From: a virus
Taxonomy: Duplodnaviria; Heunggongvirae; Uroviricota; Caudoviricetes
IMG/VR virus record: IMGVR_UViG_2617270940_000004
Location: 1-19,706 of that record
Length of the DNA stretch: 19,706 nt
Reading direction: 5' to 3' (one strand)
The notes below the pieces were generated by a model that was given only the letters and a program-made list of their open reading frames with translations, was not told where the DNA came from and made no database searches. Position numbers and translations under genes: made by a program. Shown here in pieces: positions 9,803 through 18,049 of the stretch (its first letter is position 1; every line of letters starts with the position of its first letter).

Positions 9803-9820
9803 TTAAAACAAATTGTTTAG
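9803..9820. promoter_or_regulatory. Family B palindromic site (putative operator)
   Basis: TTAAAACAAATTGTTTAG; half-sites AAACAA / TTGTTT around a central base. Confidence 0.5.
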
Positions 9821-9846
9821 ACAAATGATTAATGAGAGTTAACAAC

Positions 9847-9870
9847 AAGGGCCGCTGACGGCCCTTTTGT
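9847..9870 (+). terminator. Rho-independent terminator candidate
   Basis: Stem AAGGGCCG / CGGCCCTT with loop CTGA, followed by TTGT. Confidence 0.55.
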
Positions 9871-9886
9871 ACTGAATGGAAAACGT

Positions 9887-10702
9887 ATGTTTGAGGTAAC
9901 TGCACACGCTCCCAGCACCACAGGCTTACATGCCAGGCCATCGATGACCAGTCAGGAGATCGCCGAAATGGTCGGCAGTCGCCATGACAGCGTAAAACGC
10001 ACCATTGAAAGACTCGCTAAATCCGGCGTTATTACTTTTCCACCAATGGTGGAAAAGCCCACTGCCGGGCGTCCGGCTACCTTTTACTTGTTCGAAGCCG
10101 AACAGGGTAAGCGCGACAGTATCGTTGTCGTGGCACAGCTTTCTCCTGAATTTACCGCACGTCTTGTTGATCGGTGGAGAGAGCTTGAATCCATGTTTGC
10201 CTACCACGGAACGCCTGCTATTCCGCGTACCTATAAAGAAGCGCTGGTTCATTTGCTGCGCCAGGTTGAGGAAAACGAGCGTCTGGAGAGTGAGAACGAG
10301 GCGTTGGGCGTAGCACTATCCAACGCAAAGCCAAAAGCCATTCTCATGGACACCATTTGCGGCACTGCTGATGAACTTTATGGGTTGAATGAAGCCGGTC
10401 GCATTCTCGGCACGTCCGGGGCTGTTCTGGGTGCGCTGATGGACTCGCTGGGTGATGTGTACGTTAAGCGCAAATACACCACTGTTAACCGCCAGTTCCT
10501 CAAGATCTTCATTGACCGCGGATATGGCAAAAACGTTGTCATCGGAAACGGTCGCAACCAGGCCAAGTTCACCTTTAAAGGGCTTTGCTTTGCAGCTGTG
10601 AAACTAATTGCAGCCGGGTTGATTGCCTCCAGCGCCATTGAATATGAGCCGTGTCGTGAGCATGTCGAACGTGCAATGAAGGAATCCAAACGTCTTCATT
10701 GA
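9887..10702 (+). CDS. Phage antirepressor-type regulator (Rha-like N-terminal domain + ANT/KilAC-like C-terminal domain)
   Basis: N-terminal MTSQEIAEMVGSRHDSVKRTIERL resembles the Rha family; C-terminal ILGTSGAVLGALMDSLGDVYVKRKYTTVNRQFLKIFIDRGYGKNVV resembles the ANT domain. Start uncertain (9887 or 9944). Confidence 0.55.
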   Translation: MFEVTAHAPSTTGLHARPSMTSQEIAEMVGSRHDSVKRTIERLAKSGVITFPPMVEKPTAGRPATFYLFEAEQGKRDSIVVVAQLSPEFTARLVDRWRELESMFAYHGTPAIPRTYKEALVHLLRQVEENERLESENEALGVALSNAKPKAILMDTICGTADELYGLNEAGRILGTSGAVLGALMDSLGDVYVKRKYTTVNRQFLKIFIDRGYGKNVVIGNGRNQAKFTFKGLCFAAVKLIAAGLIASSAIEYEPCREHVERAMKESKRLH

Positions 10703-10773
10703 CCGTCAGTATGGACGTCCACCTTTATGTAGCGTTTGGCCACCTTTTCAGTCACGTCACAATAACACAATTG

Positions 10774-10791
10774 AGAAAACAACTTGTTTAA
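10774..10791. promoter_or_regulatory. Family B palindromic site with conserved upstream ATAACA box (putative promoter/operator)
   Basis: AGAAAACAACTTGTTTAA preceded by CAATAACACAATTGAG; lies ~20 nt upstream of the 10811 start codon. Confidence 0.55.
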
Positions 10792-10810
10792 AAACATAAG
10801 GAAAAAACAC

Positions 10811-11383
10811 ATGTGCGACAAATGCAAAAAAACTAATGCCAAAGTTGAAAGCGTGATTAAAAAAGTTGGTGCGGCCGAACTGGTTGAGATCATGGGTCTT
10901 GTGGCTGGTCACGAAGACGACGCCTCCCCTATTGACCGCCTTTTCAGCGTTCTCAAGTTCTCAAGCATGATTGATGATCCGATTGAAATTGTGATGCTGG
11001 CGCGTCATTTCGGCGAAGCGTATCTGGAAGAGAAAGAACGCGCCGACAAACTTCAGGCAACTCTGGAAATGGTAAGCAAGCCGAAGTGCTCACCGGATTC
11101 AGTCAAGGCAGATGAAACCAACGCCAGCAAAGATCGTGAAATCGCCGGGTTGAAGTTTTCTCTGGCGATGTTGCTGGCCGCCTTCAAACTGATGTCTTCC
11201 CAGGCTGGATTCAAAATGCCTGAGCTGAACAGCGACGATCCGATGGCCGTTCGCCAGCTGCTGGGGGCAATGGCCGACCAGCTTGACGACACCAAGAGCC
11301 GTCTTGAAGACATGATGCGCGAGCTGACCCATCGCTACGACCTGAACAAACAGCCGCAAAAGATGCAGCCTTTACATCATTAA
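10811..11383 (+). CDS. Hypothetical protein
   Basis: ATG 10811 with AAGGA 8 nt upstream (ORF track TTG start 10784 lies inside the operator motif); 190 aa, N-terminal CDKCKK. Confidence 0.5.
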   Translation: MCDKCKKTNAKVESVIKKVGAAELVEIMGLVAGHEDDASPIDRLFSVLKFSSMIDDPIEIVMLARHFGEAYLEEKERADKLQATLEMVSKPKCSPDSVKADETNASKDREIAGLKFSLAMLLAAFKLMSSQAGFKMPELNSDDPMAVRQLLGAMADQLDDTKSRLEDMMRELTHRYDLNKQPQKMQPLHH

Positions 11384-11388
11384 TATAT

Positions 11389-11405
11389 AGGGGGCAAAGC
11401 CCCCT
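11389..11405. terminator. Bidirectional hairpin between convergent genes
   Basis: AGGGGGC AAA GCCCCCT perfect stem-loop between the stop of 10811-11383 (+) and the stop of 11409-11828 (-). Confidence 0.5.
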
Positions 11406-11408
11406 ACT

Positions 11409-16384: not shown

Positions 16385-16390
16385 TCATCC

Positions 16391-16408
16391 CTTAAACATC
16401 TTGTTTTC
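16391..16408. promoter_or_regulatory. Family B palindromic site, imperfect
   Basis: CTTAAACATCTTGTTTTC (one half-site mismatch). Confidence 0.4.
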
Positions 16409-16441
16409 TTCCTTTTGTTATTTGAGATAATAACAACAATT

Positions 16442-16459
16442 AGAAAACAAGTTGTTTAA
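16442..16459. promoter_or_regulatory. Family B palindromic site with conserved upstream ATAACA box
   Basis: AGAAAACAAGTTGTTTAA preceded by TAATAACAACAATTAG; ~10 nt upstream of the 16470 start codon. Confidence 0.55.
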
Positions 16460-16469
16460 GGAATCATCC

Positions 16470-16706
16470 ATGTTTGGAACCGCAAAAGAGCTTATCGAAA
16501 AGCTGGAGAACTACCCAGAAGACGAGCCGCTGCTGATGGTTGTGTGGCATAAGGAAGACGTAGGCGAAGTACGCCCAGACCTTACTGACTATCAGTGCGC
16601 CCAGGTCTTGCGCAGAATCAAAGAGTGTCATGATGCCAATATCGGCGTGAATTGGGACGTTATCTCTGACACGGCCGACATCCTGTTTCCGAAGGAGAAG
16701 GCATGA
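16470..16706 (+). CDS. Hypothetical small protein (78 aa)
   Basis: ATG 16470 with AAGGA upstream; stop overlaps next start (ATGA at 16703-16706). Confidence 0.5.
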   Translation: MFGTAKELIEKLENYPEDEPLLMVVWHKEDVGEVRPDLTDYQCAQVLRRIKECHDANIGVNWDVISDTADILFPKEKA

Positions 16707-17023
16707 TGCTGACATTGAAAGAATCCTATAAGACCGCAGTGATCAGCACCGCCCATGTCACGGCCAAAGACTCCGAGCTGCTGCCTGTCGTGTGCTTTGA
16801 CCCGTTGACCGATCGCGGGTTGAATTGGGTACATGGTACACAGTACGGCTGGATTGTTCGTGCTGGAATGCGAGGGAATGACTGGAAAGAAGAGCTGCGT
16901 GAGTATGGCATTTCCGAAGAGACGATCTCCAACATACAGACCATAGTGGATGCCGGGTATGATTCGGTACAATTTGACTGTGATGCGGAGCTGGTGGATG
17001 GGATGCCAGCATGGGATTGGTAG
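16703..17023 (+). CDS. Hypothetical small protein (106 aa)
   Basis: AAGGAGAAGG RBS; translationally coupled to the preceding gene. Confidence 0.5.
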   Translation: MMLTLKESYKTAVISTAHVTAKDSELLPVVCFDPLTDRGLNWVHGTQYGWIVRAGMRGNDWKEELREYGISEETISNIQTIVDAGYDSVQFDCDAELVDGMPAWDW

Positions 17024-17038
17024 ATATAACTACTAGCA

Positions 17039-17665
17039 ATGGCGGGAATAATTACCTGGAAAGTTGATATCATATACCCGCTTGTATTTCAAAATGGAAT
17101 GGATGTAATGGAAATCGATACTTTAGAAAAAAAATCAGTTAAAAACCTCTACGCGTGGCTTATAGCAATACTGCCGTTTGTTGTCAGCGTCCCCCCTGCT
17201 GAGTACGACAATTACGTTATGGTGATTTCGTTCGTCATTGGGCTTGGACTGCTGGTCGCCGATCGCATGAATTTGACTGAGGCAGGCTATGAGCCACCAT
17301 CATTCTTATGGGGGTTCTTTATCCCTCCTGTGTACCTCTGGAAACGAGCGACGGTTCTTGGAAGTAACCGACTGCTGTTTATCGTATGGATTGTTGCCTT
17401 TGCTGCATCATTTTTCGTGTATAGCTTCAACGCAGATTCAGCGCTTGAAGAAGCTGCTTGCCCTATAGTTACCACTATTCTGAAAGAAAATAACGGTTCA
17501 GAAGCATCTAAATGCATGAAGGTAACAATTCAGGACAAAGTGACGGACAAGTTCTACAAAGCCACGGCTACACTGGATAACGGTAATGACATTAACATCA
17601 CTATCGAAATGATCGGTGACGAGAATTTCTACGTTCGCGTGCCTAATTACTACCTAAACGACTAA
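17039..17665 (+). CDS. Hypothetical membrane protein (three predicted TM helices, soluble C-terminal domain)
   Basis: Hydrophobic stretches LYAWLIAILPFVVSV, YVMVISFVIGLGLLVA, LLFIVWIVAFAASFFVY. Start uncertain (in-frame ATGs at 17039, 17099, 17108; none has a strong SD). Locally AT-rich. Confidence 0.45.
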   Translation: MAGIITWKVDIIYPLVFQNGMDVMEIDTLEKKSVKNLYAWLIAILPFVVSVPPAEYDNYVMVISFVIGLGLLVADRMNLTEAGYEPPSFLWGFFIPPVYLWKRATVLGSNRLLFIVWIVAFAASFFVYSFNADSALEEAACPIVTTILKENNGSEASKCMKVTIQDKVTDKFYKATATLDNGNDINITIEMIGDENFYVRVPNYYLND

Positions 17666-18005
17666 CGGCTGCAACTCGTTGACATTGGCGGTCACAAATT
17701 GAGGATTTCTATAAGAGTCCGTTGATCGCCACTTCCCCCACCTCTCCAACCTACCCCAGCCCAGGGGTGACAAGGCATTTAAGCCAATTACACCCATAAG
17801 AAAACAAATAAATAACACGTCAACGAAAAGTCAACGCTTTCCTCTGATTTGGTCTAAAAAGTTGACGTTTTCGCAAGCCATCTCTTATACCCAAAATCCT
17901 GCGCACCAGAATCCATCTCCCTGCGACCAAAACGTCAAAAACGACTCGTGATATCACTCAAAAACAGAAGCGCTCAGAAGCGCTCCCGTTGCGTTATATT
18001 GGGCA

Positions 18006-18023
18006 TCTAAACAAGTTGTTTTC
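18006..18023. promoter_or_regulatory. Family B palindromic site
   Basis: TCTAAACAAGTTGTTTTC; no intact gene follows before the IS2 insertion at 18387. Confidence 0.5.
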
Positions 18024-18049
18024 AGGCATAAGAAAACAAATTAACAACC

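Follow-up and report, generated by a model that had tools for sequence, protein, structure and literature searches.

The window analyzed here is a 19,706-nt stretch of DNA (IMG/VR virus record IMGVR_UViG_2617270940_000004, positions 1 to 19,706; Caudoviricetes), and most of it, bases 378–18387, is a segment of an SSU5-type phage-plasmid with 98.5% identity to Escherichia coli plasmid pLAO18 and 90.5% to Salmonella phage SSU5. The gaps between its genes carry a recurring palindrome, AAACAA-N-TTGTTT, here called family B. Family B is real, strongly nonrandom, and family-wide, and it is almost certainly functional. We give about an even chance to the reading that it combines a sigma-70 promoter with a dispersed operator for a dimeric repressor encoded by the element itself.

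The exact palindrome AAACAANTTGTTT occurs seven times in the window (9806–9818, 10777–10789, 11975–11987, 15701–15713, 16017–16029, 16445–16457, and 18009–18021), and a further site, AAACATCTTGTTT at 16394–16406, has one mismatch. All eight are intergenic. The initial annotation of this DNA had listed eight intervals with AAACAA-N-TTGTTT half-sites, and each contains one of these sites. It had also listed a degenerate ninth at ∼18031–18049 (AAGAAAACAAATTAACAAC), which is present as a good left half and a decayed right half, with its center 25 bp from the dyad at 18015. As it described, three sites of the form AGAAAACAAnTTGTTTAA follow a (T/C)AATAACA box and precede start codons, at 10811, 12000, and 16470, which are 21, 12, and 12 nt past the palindrome, respectively. 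Chance in AT-rich intergenic DNA, which it had named as the explanation that could overturn the motif, does not account for the sites. Whole-window dinucleotide shuffles yield an expectation of 0.01 exact matches, and shuffles of the intergenic DNA only (3,827 bases of the window, 56% A+T) yield 0.0035 exact matches and 0.04 with at most one mismatch, versus 7 and 8 observed. No other 6-N-6 palindrome recurs in the window; every other one is single.

Across relatives, the element is conserved in sequence, position, and orientation, as comparison of SSU5, Cyrano, a Klebsiella phage, and pLAO18 bears out. SSU5 has 20 sites at no more than one mismatch, versus ∼0.35 expected, all in annotated gaps between genes and mostly 13–40 nt before plus-strand starts. 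The genes behind them are terS (two sites), parA, dnaB, gene 049, gene 063, nrdB, ant, 094, the methyltransferase gene, 099, ydfZ, 104, 111, 113, 115, and 117. Cyrano has 5 and 12 sites in the two stretches covered and the Klebsiella phage 12 over 47 kb, a density per kilobase equal to that of SSU5. In a Klebsiella plasmid that is more distantly related (54% identity in the Par partner protein), the sites in front of parA and dnaB are retained. Pectobacterium plasmid Drgb1, which has the same gene order and is much more diverged, has no B family. A scan of IMG/VR with GAAAACAANTTGTTTA returned mostly single chance matches and no unrelated motif-bearing phage family emerged (contigs with multiple matches, two of them ∼111 kb and thus of SSU5-type genome size, were not examined further). 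Family B had been proposed as a second regulon of the island in the window; the conserved element stands, but it is family-wide rather than specific to the island, as sites also precede terS, parA, dnaB, and nrdB outside the window. Interleaved with a second palindrome, family A, family B fills most intergenic gaps of these genomes.

The late operon is included in this distribution. In SSU5 (L002 56–120) and Cyrano (L007 57–125), terS is preceded by two B sites that are 25 bp apart, and in the Klebsiella phage (L009 39886–39935) by one B site within one mismatch. In all three, a terminator-like hairpin, GAGCGCAAGGATGCGCTC, followed by TGTTTT is located between the B sites and the ribosome-binding site of terS, which suggests read-through control of late genes.

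The sites have a common anatomy. Our collection of 68 sites from five genomes reduces to 49 that are nonredundant, among which 33 have the form AGAAAACAAnTTGTTTAA and 15 the form TTAAACAAnTTGTTTTCT. The latter is the exact reverse complement of the former, outer AGA/TCT included, and the two forms are one asymmetric 18-bp pseudo-palindrome, AGAAAACAAnTTGTTTAA, in two orientations. The "other form" that had been set apart (CTAAACAAnTTGTTTTC) is likewise the first form in reverse complement, and the sites grouped under it separate: 9806 is a first-form site with its own promoter-like box, and 15701 is symmetric (TTAAACAATTTGTTTAA). In a logo of the 33 first-form sites, both halves of the palindrome carry 1.6–1.8 bits per position and the center base carries 0 bits. 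A nearly invariant T (∼1.8 bits) is located 20 nt upstream of the dyad. A GATAAT-like hexamer, in most cases with TGn in front of it, ends in this T and corresponds to what had been called the TAATAACA box. These –10-like hexamers, with A at position 2 and T at position 6, have a fixed place in the element. In the window, they are CACAAT (10758–10763), AATAAT (11956–11961), and GATAAT (16426–16431) on the plus strand and TGTAAT (plus-strand coordinates 16043–16048) on the minus strand, facing ydfZ, each with its last T exactly 20 nt from the dyad. TG one base before the hexamer is found at 11953, at 16423, and in most copies of SSU5, Cyrano, and the Klebsiella phage, and is absent at 10777 and several other sites (G ∼0.4 bits). 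A Shine-Dalgarno sequence lies 0–12 nt past all first-form sites.

From the fixed hexamer, its position after terminators, and its orientation with the gene, we infer that the module box is a sigma-70 promoter of the extended –10 type (TGnGATAAT with a weak –35). If the hexamer is the –10, transcription would start ∼13 nt ahead of the dyad, which would place the dyad at ∼+14 and the site at ∼+5 to +22. This position, downstream of the –10, argues for an operator over the transcript start and not for a –35-type promoter element. Of the promoter/operator-like element originally proposed, the conserved sequence, position, and orientation and the fixed –10-like hexamer are upheld, and promoter and operator are both predicted roles.

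The inverted form of the site has a place of its own. It follows the terminator of the upstream gene, precedes the same promoter box, and is centered at ∼–38. Dyads paired at a distance of 51 bp are present in the window (16400/16451), in SSU5 (88325/88376 and 85608/85659), and in Cyrano (30253/30304). A full upstream copy is nonetheless the exception, with 4–5-mismatch remnants elsewhere, and we rejected a general upstream operator because a complete second site 51 bp away is found in only one to three promoters per genome.

A conserved dyad, a free center, and mirror-image auxiliary copies are the expected imprint of a symmetric protein dimer on double-stranded DNA. As RNA, the palindrome forms a hairpin of –0.2 to –0.8 kcal/mol at five of seven sites, those without extra complementary flanks, and folds no better than shuffled sequences at six of seven. 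The exception is 9806, where additional complementary flanks create a true hairpin. Every variant with one mismatch (TAACAA, TTGGTT, TTATTT, AAACAT, GTGTTT, and others) breaks a pair, none is compensatory, and each retains one perfect half-site. Given the near-zero stability, the lack of covariation, and the absence of a match to the B element in Rfam, an RNA hairpin or intrinsic terminator was rejected as the identity of the palindrome.

Expression in a lysogen is consistent with repression. E. coli LF82 carrying Cyrano has been profiled by gene-level RNA-seq. Cyrano genes have a median of 9.8 normalized reads in these data, and genes behind B sites have 7 (terS), 21 (helicase), 13 (nrdB), 7 (each of CYRAN_85, 87, and 101), 13 (CYRAN_105), 12 (CYRAN_106), 6 (CYRAN_108), and 26 (CYRAN_111) reads (PMC9928086, S1 table). 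These values put the genes at background. Extended –10 promoters normally need no activator. Silence of the B genes would therefore fit repression, with the predicted dyad at ∼+14 as the obvious candidate operator, an argument that the Cyrano methyltransferase gene and parA (below) weaken.

In addition to the box and the start position, we infer that a protein binds the palindrome and that its binding represses. An element-encoded dimeric DNA-binding protein would occupy the ∼20 dispersed B copies and block RNA polymerase at or just after initiation, such that replication, accessory, and late (terS) units would stay off together during plasmid life. Where a second, inverted copy is located at ∼–38, its distance of 51 bp would put it on roughly the same face of the helix, and two dimers could clamp the promoter cooperatively.

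The window (1–19706) holds no gene for a candidate regulator (no parA partner, FljA-like gene, or SSU5_123), and if the remainder of the element is missing from the replicon, the B promoters of the window would be orphaned from their regulator. Candidates, in order, are SSU5_034/CYRAN_29 (ParG/omega-like), SSU5_123/CYRAN_117, and SSU5_121/CYRAN_114 (FljA family). SSU5_034/CYRAN_29 is a small protein encoded right after a type Ib parA, with 89 reads in the lysogen and an invariant core of SRTMS.EDE...FTRSDVIRAAI. By eye, its FTRSDVIRAAI motif looks to us like that of a ribbon-helix-helix protein of the ParG/omega kind. The ParA is 221 amino acids long and has MipZ/ParA domains. In three lineages, parA has a B site in front of it (SSU5 30449, Cyrano 29259, and pB-KP1118-1 19197), as one single copy with no adjacent repeat array. 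A tentative reading, which we place well short of an even chance, makes B the common binding site of the small ParG/omega-like protein from the type Ib partition system that the element itself carries. On that reading, a single protein of plasmid maintenance would serve two ends, tagging the molecule for segregation and keeping ∼20 lytic, replication, and accessory promoters silent, among them that of the late terS operon, and plasmid state and phage silence would be coupled via a single dispersed centromere-operator. A BLASTP comparison with TP228 ParG was uninformative, as was the diverged homolog in K. pneumoniae p1 (H82), where parA is disrupted by IS5.

The second candidate, SSU5_123/CYRAN_117, is a small protein of similar look that is encoded in the helicase operon and has 114 reads. 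In the promoter of that operon, a perfect TATAAT implies a transcription start ∼22 bp downstream of a family A site. Because of autoregulation logic, B could be paired with the ParG-like protein and A with SSU5_123, which we offer as a hypothesis only.

Several observations weigh against a promoter with a repressor's operator, or against its leading candidate. In the Cyrano methyltransferase promoter (L005 19988–20067, upstream of CYRAN_90), the box is kept and the palindrome has decayed (AAACAAATCACTTCTTA). The gene is at background despite the lost palindrome, and the palindrome is therefore not the sole reason for silence. The parA gene, which has a perfect site, is expressed (50–90 reads, 5–9× background). 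A sigma-70 consensus scan called no module via its box, and no –35 hexamer is recognizable 16–18 nt upstream, with only a weak (C)TTTG(T/A) in the region. The scan misses the modules because their –35 region is weak; canonical sigma-70 promoters were rejected accordingly, and the extended –10 reading is retained only because of the invariant T and the fixed spacing. The left half with its AGA extension is kept without the right half in SSU5 (85650) and in Drgb1, which hints at a role of its own for the lone left half, as promoter or leader. A DNA operator would not have to lie so strictly next to the ribosome-binding site. Last, searches of Pfam, PHROGs, and PDB and a Foldseek search gave nothing for a ribbon-helix-helix fold in the ParG-like protein, and its AlphaFold2 model has a mean predicted local distance difference test score (pLDDT) of 64, with residues 1–47 at low confidence and without assigned secondary structure and helices after them.

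Adjacency of all first-form sites to Shine-Dalgarno sequences could instead reflect control at the RNA level, in which the leader palindrome would be bound by a translational repressor that covers the neighboring ribosome-binding site, or paired with a small RNA of the same self-complementary sequence, for example one from 9797–9873, and the untranslated mRNA would decay. We consider this unlikely, although a candidate repressor is at hand. SSU5_121 belongs to the FljA family (PF03614, E = 3e-81) and has homologs with 79–97% identity in pLAO18, Klebsiella, and Cyrano. The gene is found in every SSU5-type genome examined (four; SSU5_121, L003 46897–47343; Cyrano, L005 37916–38359; pLAO18, L001 26655–27098; Klebsiella, L009 32983–33426), outside this window, and is above background in the lysogen (18 reads in LB, log2 of 7–8 in other conditions). 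In Drgb1, which lacks the B family, the FljA-like protein is only 26% identical. PMC2652032, citing Yamamoto and Kutsukake 2006, reports that FljA of Salmonella binds the fliC 5′ leader and blocks translation. Such an action would fit the position of B beside the ribosome-binding site but not its dyad symmetry. The promoter-palindrome-terminator unit at 9797–9873, which has no open reading frame, also speaks for an RNA. But exact dyad symmetry marks binding by a dimer to double-stranded DNA rather than recognition of single-stranded RNA, most sites have a negligible hairpin and variants are not compensatory, and the inverted copies, which at ∼–38 lie upstream of the predicted start, mirror the outer bases. 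The analogy with fliC was rejected because leaders from E. coli, Salmonella, Citrobacter, and others share only a nonsignificant 8-mer with B: CAAGTTGT in Salmonella and Citrobacter (8/12 positions; ∼0.17 by chance by our own estimate), with no B-like motif in the E. coli leader. The FljA-family protein may silence host flagellin, regulate the element, or both. By eye, its sequence resembles two small beta-rich repeats rather than a helix-turn-helix.

The terminator-like hairpins in two B units, the rha/ant leader (9849–9872) and the terS leader, are what would be expected if B recruited a positive factor. Such a factor could activate in the lytic phase or be an antiterminator. The latter would load onto RNA polymerase close to the promoter, in the manner of lambda Q at pR′, and transcription from B promoters could then pass the terminators that follow some of them. 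The Cyrano methyltransferase gene, silent without its palindrome, behaves as if it needed a factor absent in lysogens, and the gene of SSU5_130/CYRAN_123, a small DNA-binding-like protein, directly precedes the terS sites and shows no expression above background in the lysogen. We find this reading more doubtful still, since most B units have no terminator between site and gene, a center at +14 would be unusual for an activator, and the promoters have good extended –10 elements. SSU5_130 itself was rejected as a binder on account of its silence in the lysogen and its 61% conservation in Drgb1, a plasmid without B.

Other regulators were considered and rejected. CYRAN_45, a helix-turn-helix "putative repressor," comes with an integrase and lacks a homolog in SSU5, as well as in those parts of pLAO18 and the Klebsiella phage that were examined; its upstream region has a family A-like site and no B. 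SSU5_116 (Xre/HigA-like) has its own, different upstream dyad, ACATTCTAAATGT, and tblastn found no homolog in the other genomes. A phyletic test with Drgb1 singles out no candidate because both families are missing and several candidates are diverged. In Drgb1 (L144 23234–23455), which is without both palindrome families, an Hfq of its own is encoded directly upstream of dnaB.

Modules also coincide with breakpoints in the mosaic structure of these genomes. The 69-bp double module (16390–16457) is 84% identical to Cyrano 30243–30310, with unrelated genes on either side, and homology between the window and Cyrano resumes at 11919, the start of the methyltransferase module. Two palindromes (15701 and 16017) bracket ydfZ in the window, whereas the Klebsiella phage, in which ydfZ is absent at this place, has a single hairpin-plus-palindrome unit there. 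One unit versus two implies that the ydfZ cassette entered at, or with, a B site. B modules are also joints for exchange of accessory genes, whatever binds them. Taken further, there might be no dedicated factor at all, and B would be a promoter with an A/U-rich translation leader, spread by duplication and recombination and serving mainly as a joint for shuffling cassettes. Conservation of the stretch between the –10 box and the palindrome (AACACCAAnAAG) agrees with this, as do the breakpoints and the bracketing of ydfZ. We nevertheless judge it improbable. Common descent would not keep the 6-N-6 dyad far better than the rest of the cassette while leaving its center free, and neither the mirror-image copies at a fixed 51 bp nor the stand-alone palindromes without a promoter box (15701 and 18009) are explained.

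Least likely of all is that B is primarily a dispersed centromere for plasmid partition with secondary effects on transcription, for which the B site before the type Ib parA operon in three lineages and the dispersed palindromic, promoter-overlapping partition sites of N15 and RK2 offer some precedent, but type Ib centromeres are repeat arrays whereas the par operon has a single copy, the sites are tied to gene starts and gene orientation, and the ParB/Srx-like genes are silent in the lysogen (5–9.5 reads).

The modules of the window vary around the predicted promoter-operator plan. Before the gene of a Rha-family regulator (rha/ant, 9887–10702), a module at 9770–9820 on the plus strand has a CTTTTG box, a –10-like AATGAT at 9786–9791, and the site TTAAAACAAATTGTTTAGA with its dyad at 9812. 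Its –10-to-dyad spacing is within 1 nt of the consensus, and the site is kept in SSU5 at 80773. It overlaps a predicted short leader or small RNA that would be made from its promoter (9797–9873, plus strand), in which the extended palindrome forms a 5′ hairpin that is followed by an intrinsic terminator, AAGGGCCGCTGACGGCCCTTTT (9849–9872), and then by rha. This 77-nt unit folds at –22.5 kcal/mol (z = –4.1), has no Rfam match, and is not conserved as an open reading frame in SSU5. It could be a small RNA or an attenuating leader, and its placement upstream of a Rha/antirepressor gene recalls the antisense-RNA control of ant in P1 and P22. The next plus-strand module, of the first form (10735–10791), consists of a CCTTTTC box, CACAAT, and AGAAAACAACTTGTTTAA with its dyad at 10783, followed by the Shine-Dalgarno sequence AAGGA and the ATG at 10811. 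Before the DUF4942/N6-methyltransferase gene (12000–13685), the module at 11933–11989 (plus strand) has the extended –10 TGAAATAAT at 11953–11961 and AGAAAACAATTTGTTTAA with its dyad at 11981, and the ATG is at 12000.

The ydfZ gene (15728–15931, minus strand) is convergent with the LprI gene, and a unit without assigned strand lies between the two (15681–15715). It is composed of a hairpin, AAGGCCACTATTTGTGGCCTT, and the adjoining symmetric site TTAAACAATTTGTTTAA with its dyad at 15707. This unit is the left boundary of the ydfZ cassette, and the same hairpin-plus-palindrome is present in SSU5 at 85590 and 87610. The right boundary is the minus-strand module that faces ydfZ (16014–16048), with TGTAAT and GAAAACAATTTGTTTAGG, dyad at 16023. 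In the ydfZ homolog, the annotated start corresponds to ATA and not ATG. Farther along, the complete double module (16391–16459, plus strand) starts with an inverted TTAAACATCTTGTTTTCT (dyad 16400, ∼–38) and a CCTTTT box, continues with the extended –10 TGAGATAAT at 16423–16431 and AGAAAACAAGTTGTTTAA (dyad 16451, ∼+14), and is followed by AAGGA and the ATG at 16470 of the DUF1380 gene. Further genes around the B sites include one for DUF5983.

A tandem on the plus strand (18006–18049), in which TCTAAACAAGTTGTTTTCA (dyad 18015) is followed by the degenerate AAGAAAACAAATTAACAAC (center 18040), is at the head of a ∼700-nt C/A-rich noncoding stretch. It is kept in SSU5 (90740), Cyrano (L005 31738), and the Klebsiella phage (L009 26888). 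The whole noncoding stretch of ∼770 nt (17666–18432) is C/A-rich and G-poor (GC skew –0.22, AT skew +0.25), has repeated CCCACCT and CAGGCTAC-like words, contains the tandem B sites (18009/18031), and is shared with relatives. Its possible roles include a Rho-loading region, a long noncoding RNA, and a repeat field like that of an origin.

Family A is an 18-bp perfect palindrome, TAGGTAAGT|ACTTACCTA, with 0 copies expected by chance. In the window, it is found at 559–576, 1835–1852, 6679–6696, 7737–7754, 8933–8950, and 13686–13703, and SSU5 and the Klebsiella phage have 14 and 10 copies, respectively. Copies often overlap the stop codon of the upstream gene and are also present inside the late operon, at the terL/portal junction, after the capsid gene, and before the tail fiber and holin genes. 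At 8933 in the window and in the helicase-operon promoter of SSU5, Cyrano, and pLAO18, the palindrome ends 1 nt before TATAAT (TATTCT in the Klebsiella phage), with its dyad ∼22 bp upstream of the implied start.

The SSU5-type segment is bounded by insertion sequences. Homology with relatives begins at base 378, and bases 1–377 to its left are, by our reading, an IS1 fragment. An IS2-like element extends from 18433 to 19706 on the right. No exact match to the arrangement of IS1 fragment, SSU5-type segment, and IS2-like element was found among complete E. coli RefSeq records. Within the segment, an AT-rich large inverted repeat at 7304–7400, CCTGCTTCCGTATATATAAATA...TATATACAGACGCAGG, resembles both ends of the linear SSU5 record (103242–103299 and 1–30).

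Phage-plasmids of the SSU5 type and of the related pKpn and pSLy3 groups are often found in E. coli, Klebsiella, Salmonella, and Enterobacter, and the ParG-like gene alone matched 797 plasmid records. They can also carry resistance genes (PMC9600943). We found no published description of the B site in the literature, and a 2024 review names regulators for P1, N15, VP882, and GIL01 and none for the SSU5 group (PMC11652158). Because families A and B fill most intergenic gaps, they provide a first concrete handle on silencing and induction in the SSU5 group. The sites can be used as defined DNA baits for regulators, as predicted promoters of ∼20 transcription units, and as markers of cassette boundaries, such as those of ydfZ swaps. 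The findings open the regulation of a clinically common group of phage-plasmids to study, and the principle itself is familiar from other systems.

Family B is a sequence member of none of the systems with which we compared it. The lac-type downstream operator is similar in having a dyad shortly after the start and an auxiliary operator whole helical turns away, which makes cooperative repression possible, but the likeness is functional only, as B has no sequence or protein relationship to it and no CG-centered LacI-type box. PeSL cassettes of T4-type phages are also short conserved regulatory cassettes that flank variable genes at mosaic joints. They consist of an early promoter and a stable stem-loop, whereas the palindrome of B forms no stable stem-loop and has the look of a site for protein binding.

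By analogy, the closest parallels in behavior appear to be the C1 operators of P1, the stoperators of L5, and partition-linked global operators. KorB OB of RK2, SopB IR of N15, and omega of pSM19035 are cases in which a partition-linked protein uses short, dispersed promoter repeats as global operators; the RK2 OB site is a 13-bp 6-N-6 palindrome, and a B site precedes parA. The sequences are unrelated to B, however, its binder is only a candidate, the ParB-like genes are silent, and there is one copy by the par operon. In cluster A mycobacteriophages (L5 and Bxb1), stoperators resemble B in number (∼20–30 copies), in being 13 bp, and in occupying short gaps between genes in the direction of transcription. 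In the lysogen, they shut down the whole genome, and they stop elongating polymerase. Unlike B, which has a promoter-like box, they are asymmetric, inside operons, and without promoters of their own, and in placement family A is closer to them than B is. The C1 operator of P1 is a 17-bp asymmetric sequence (consensus ATTGCTCTAATAAATTT) that usually overlaps the –35/–10; B differs in its 6-N-6 dyad, its sequence, and its predicted center at ∼+14, and no c1 homolog was seen among the regulators examined. Yet P1, like the SSU5-type elements, is a plasmid prophage in which one operator is present in many scattered copies, each for its own lytic or accessory unit, and a replicative helicase and a DNA methyltransferase are among the units controlled.

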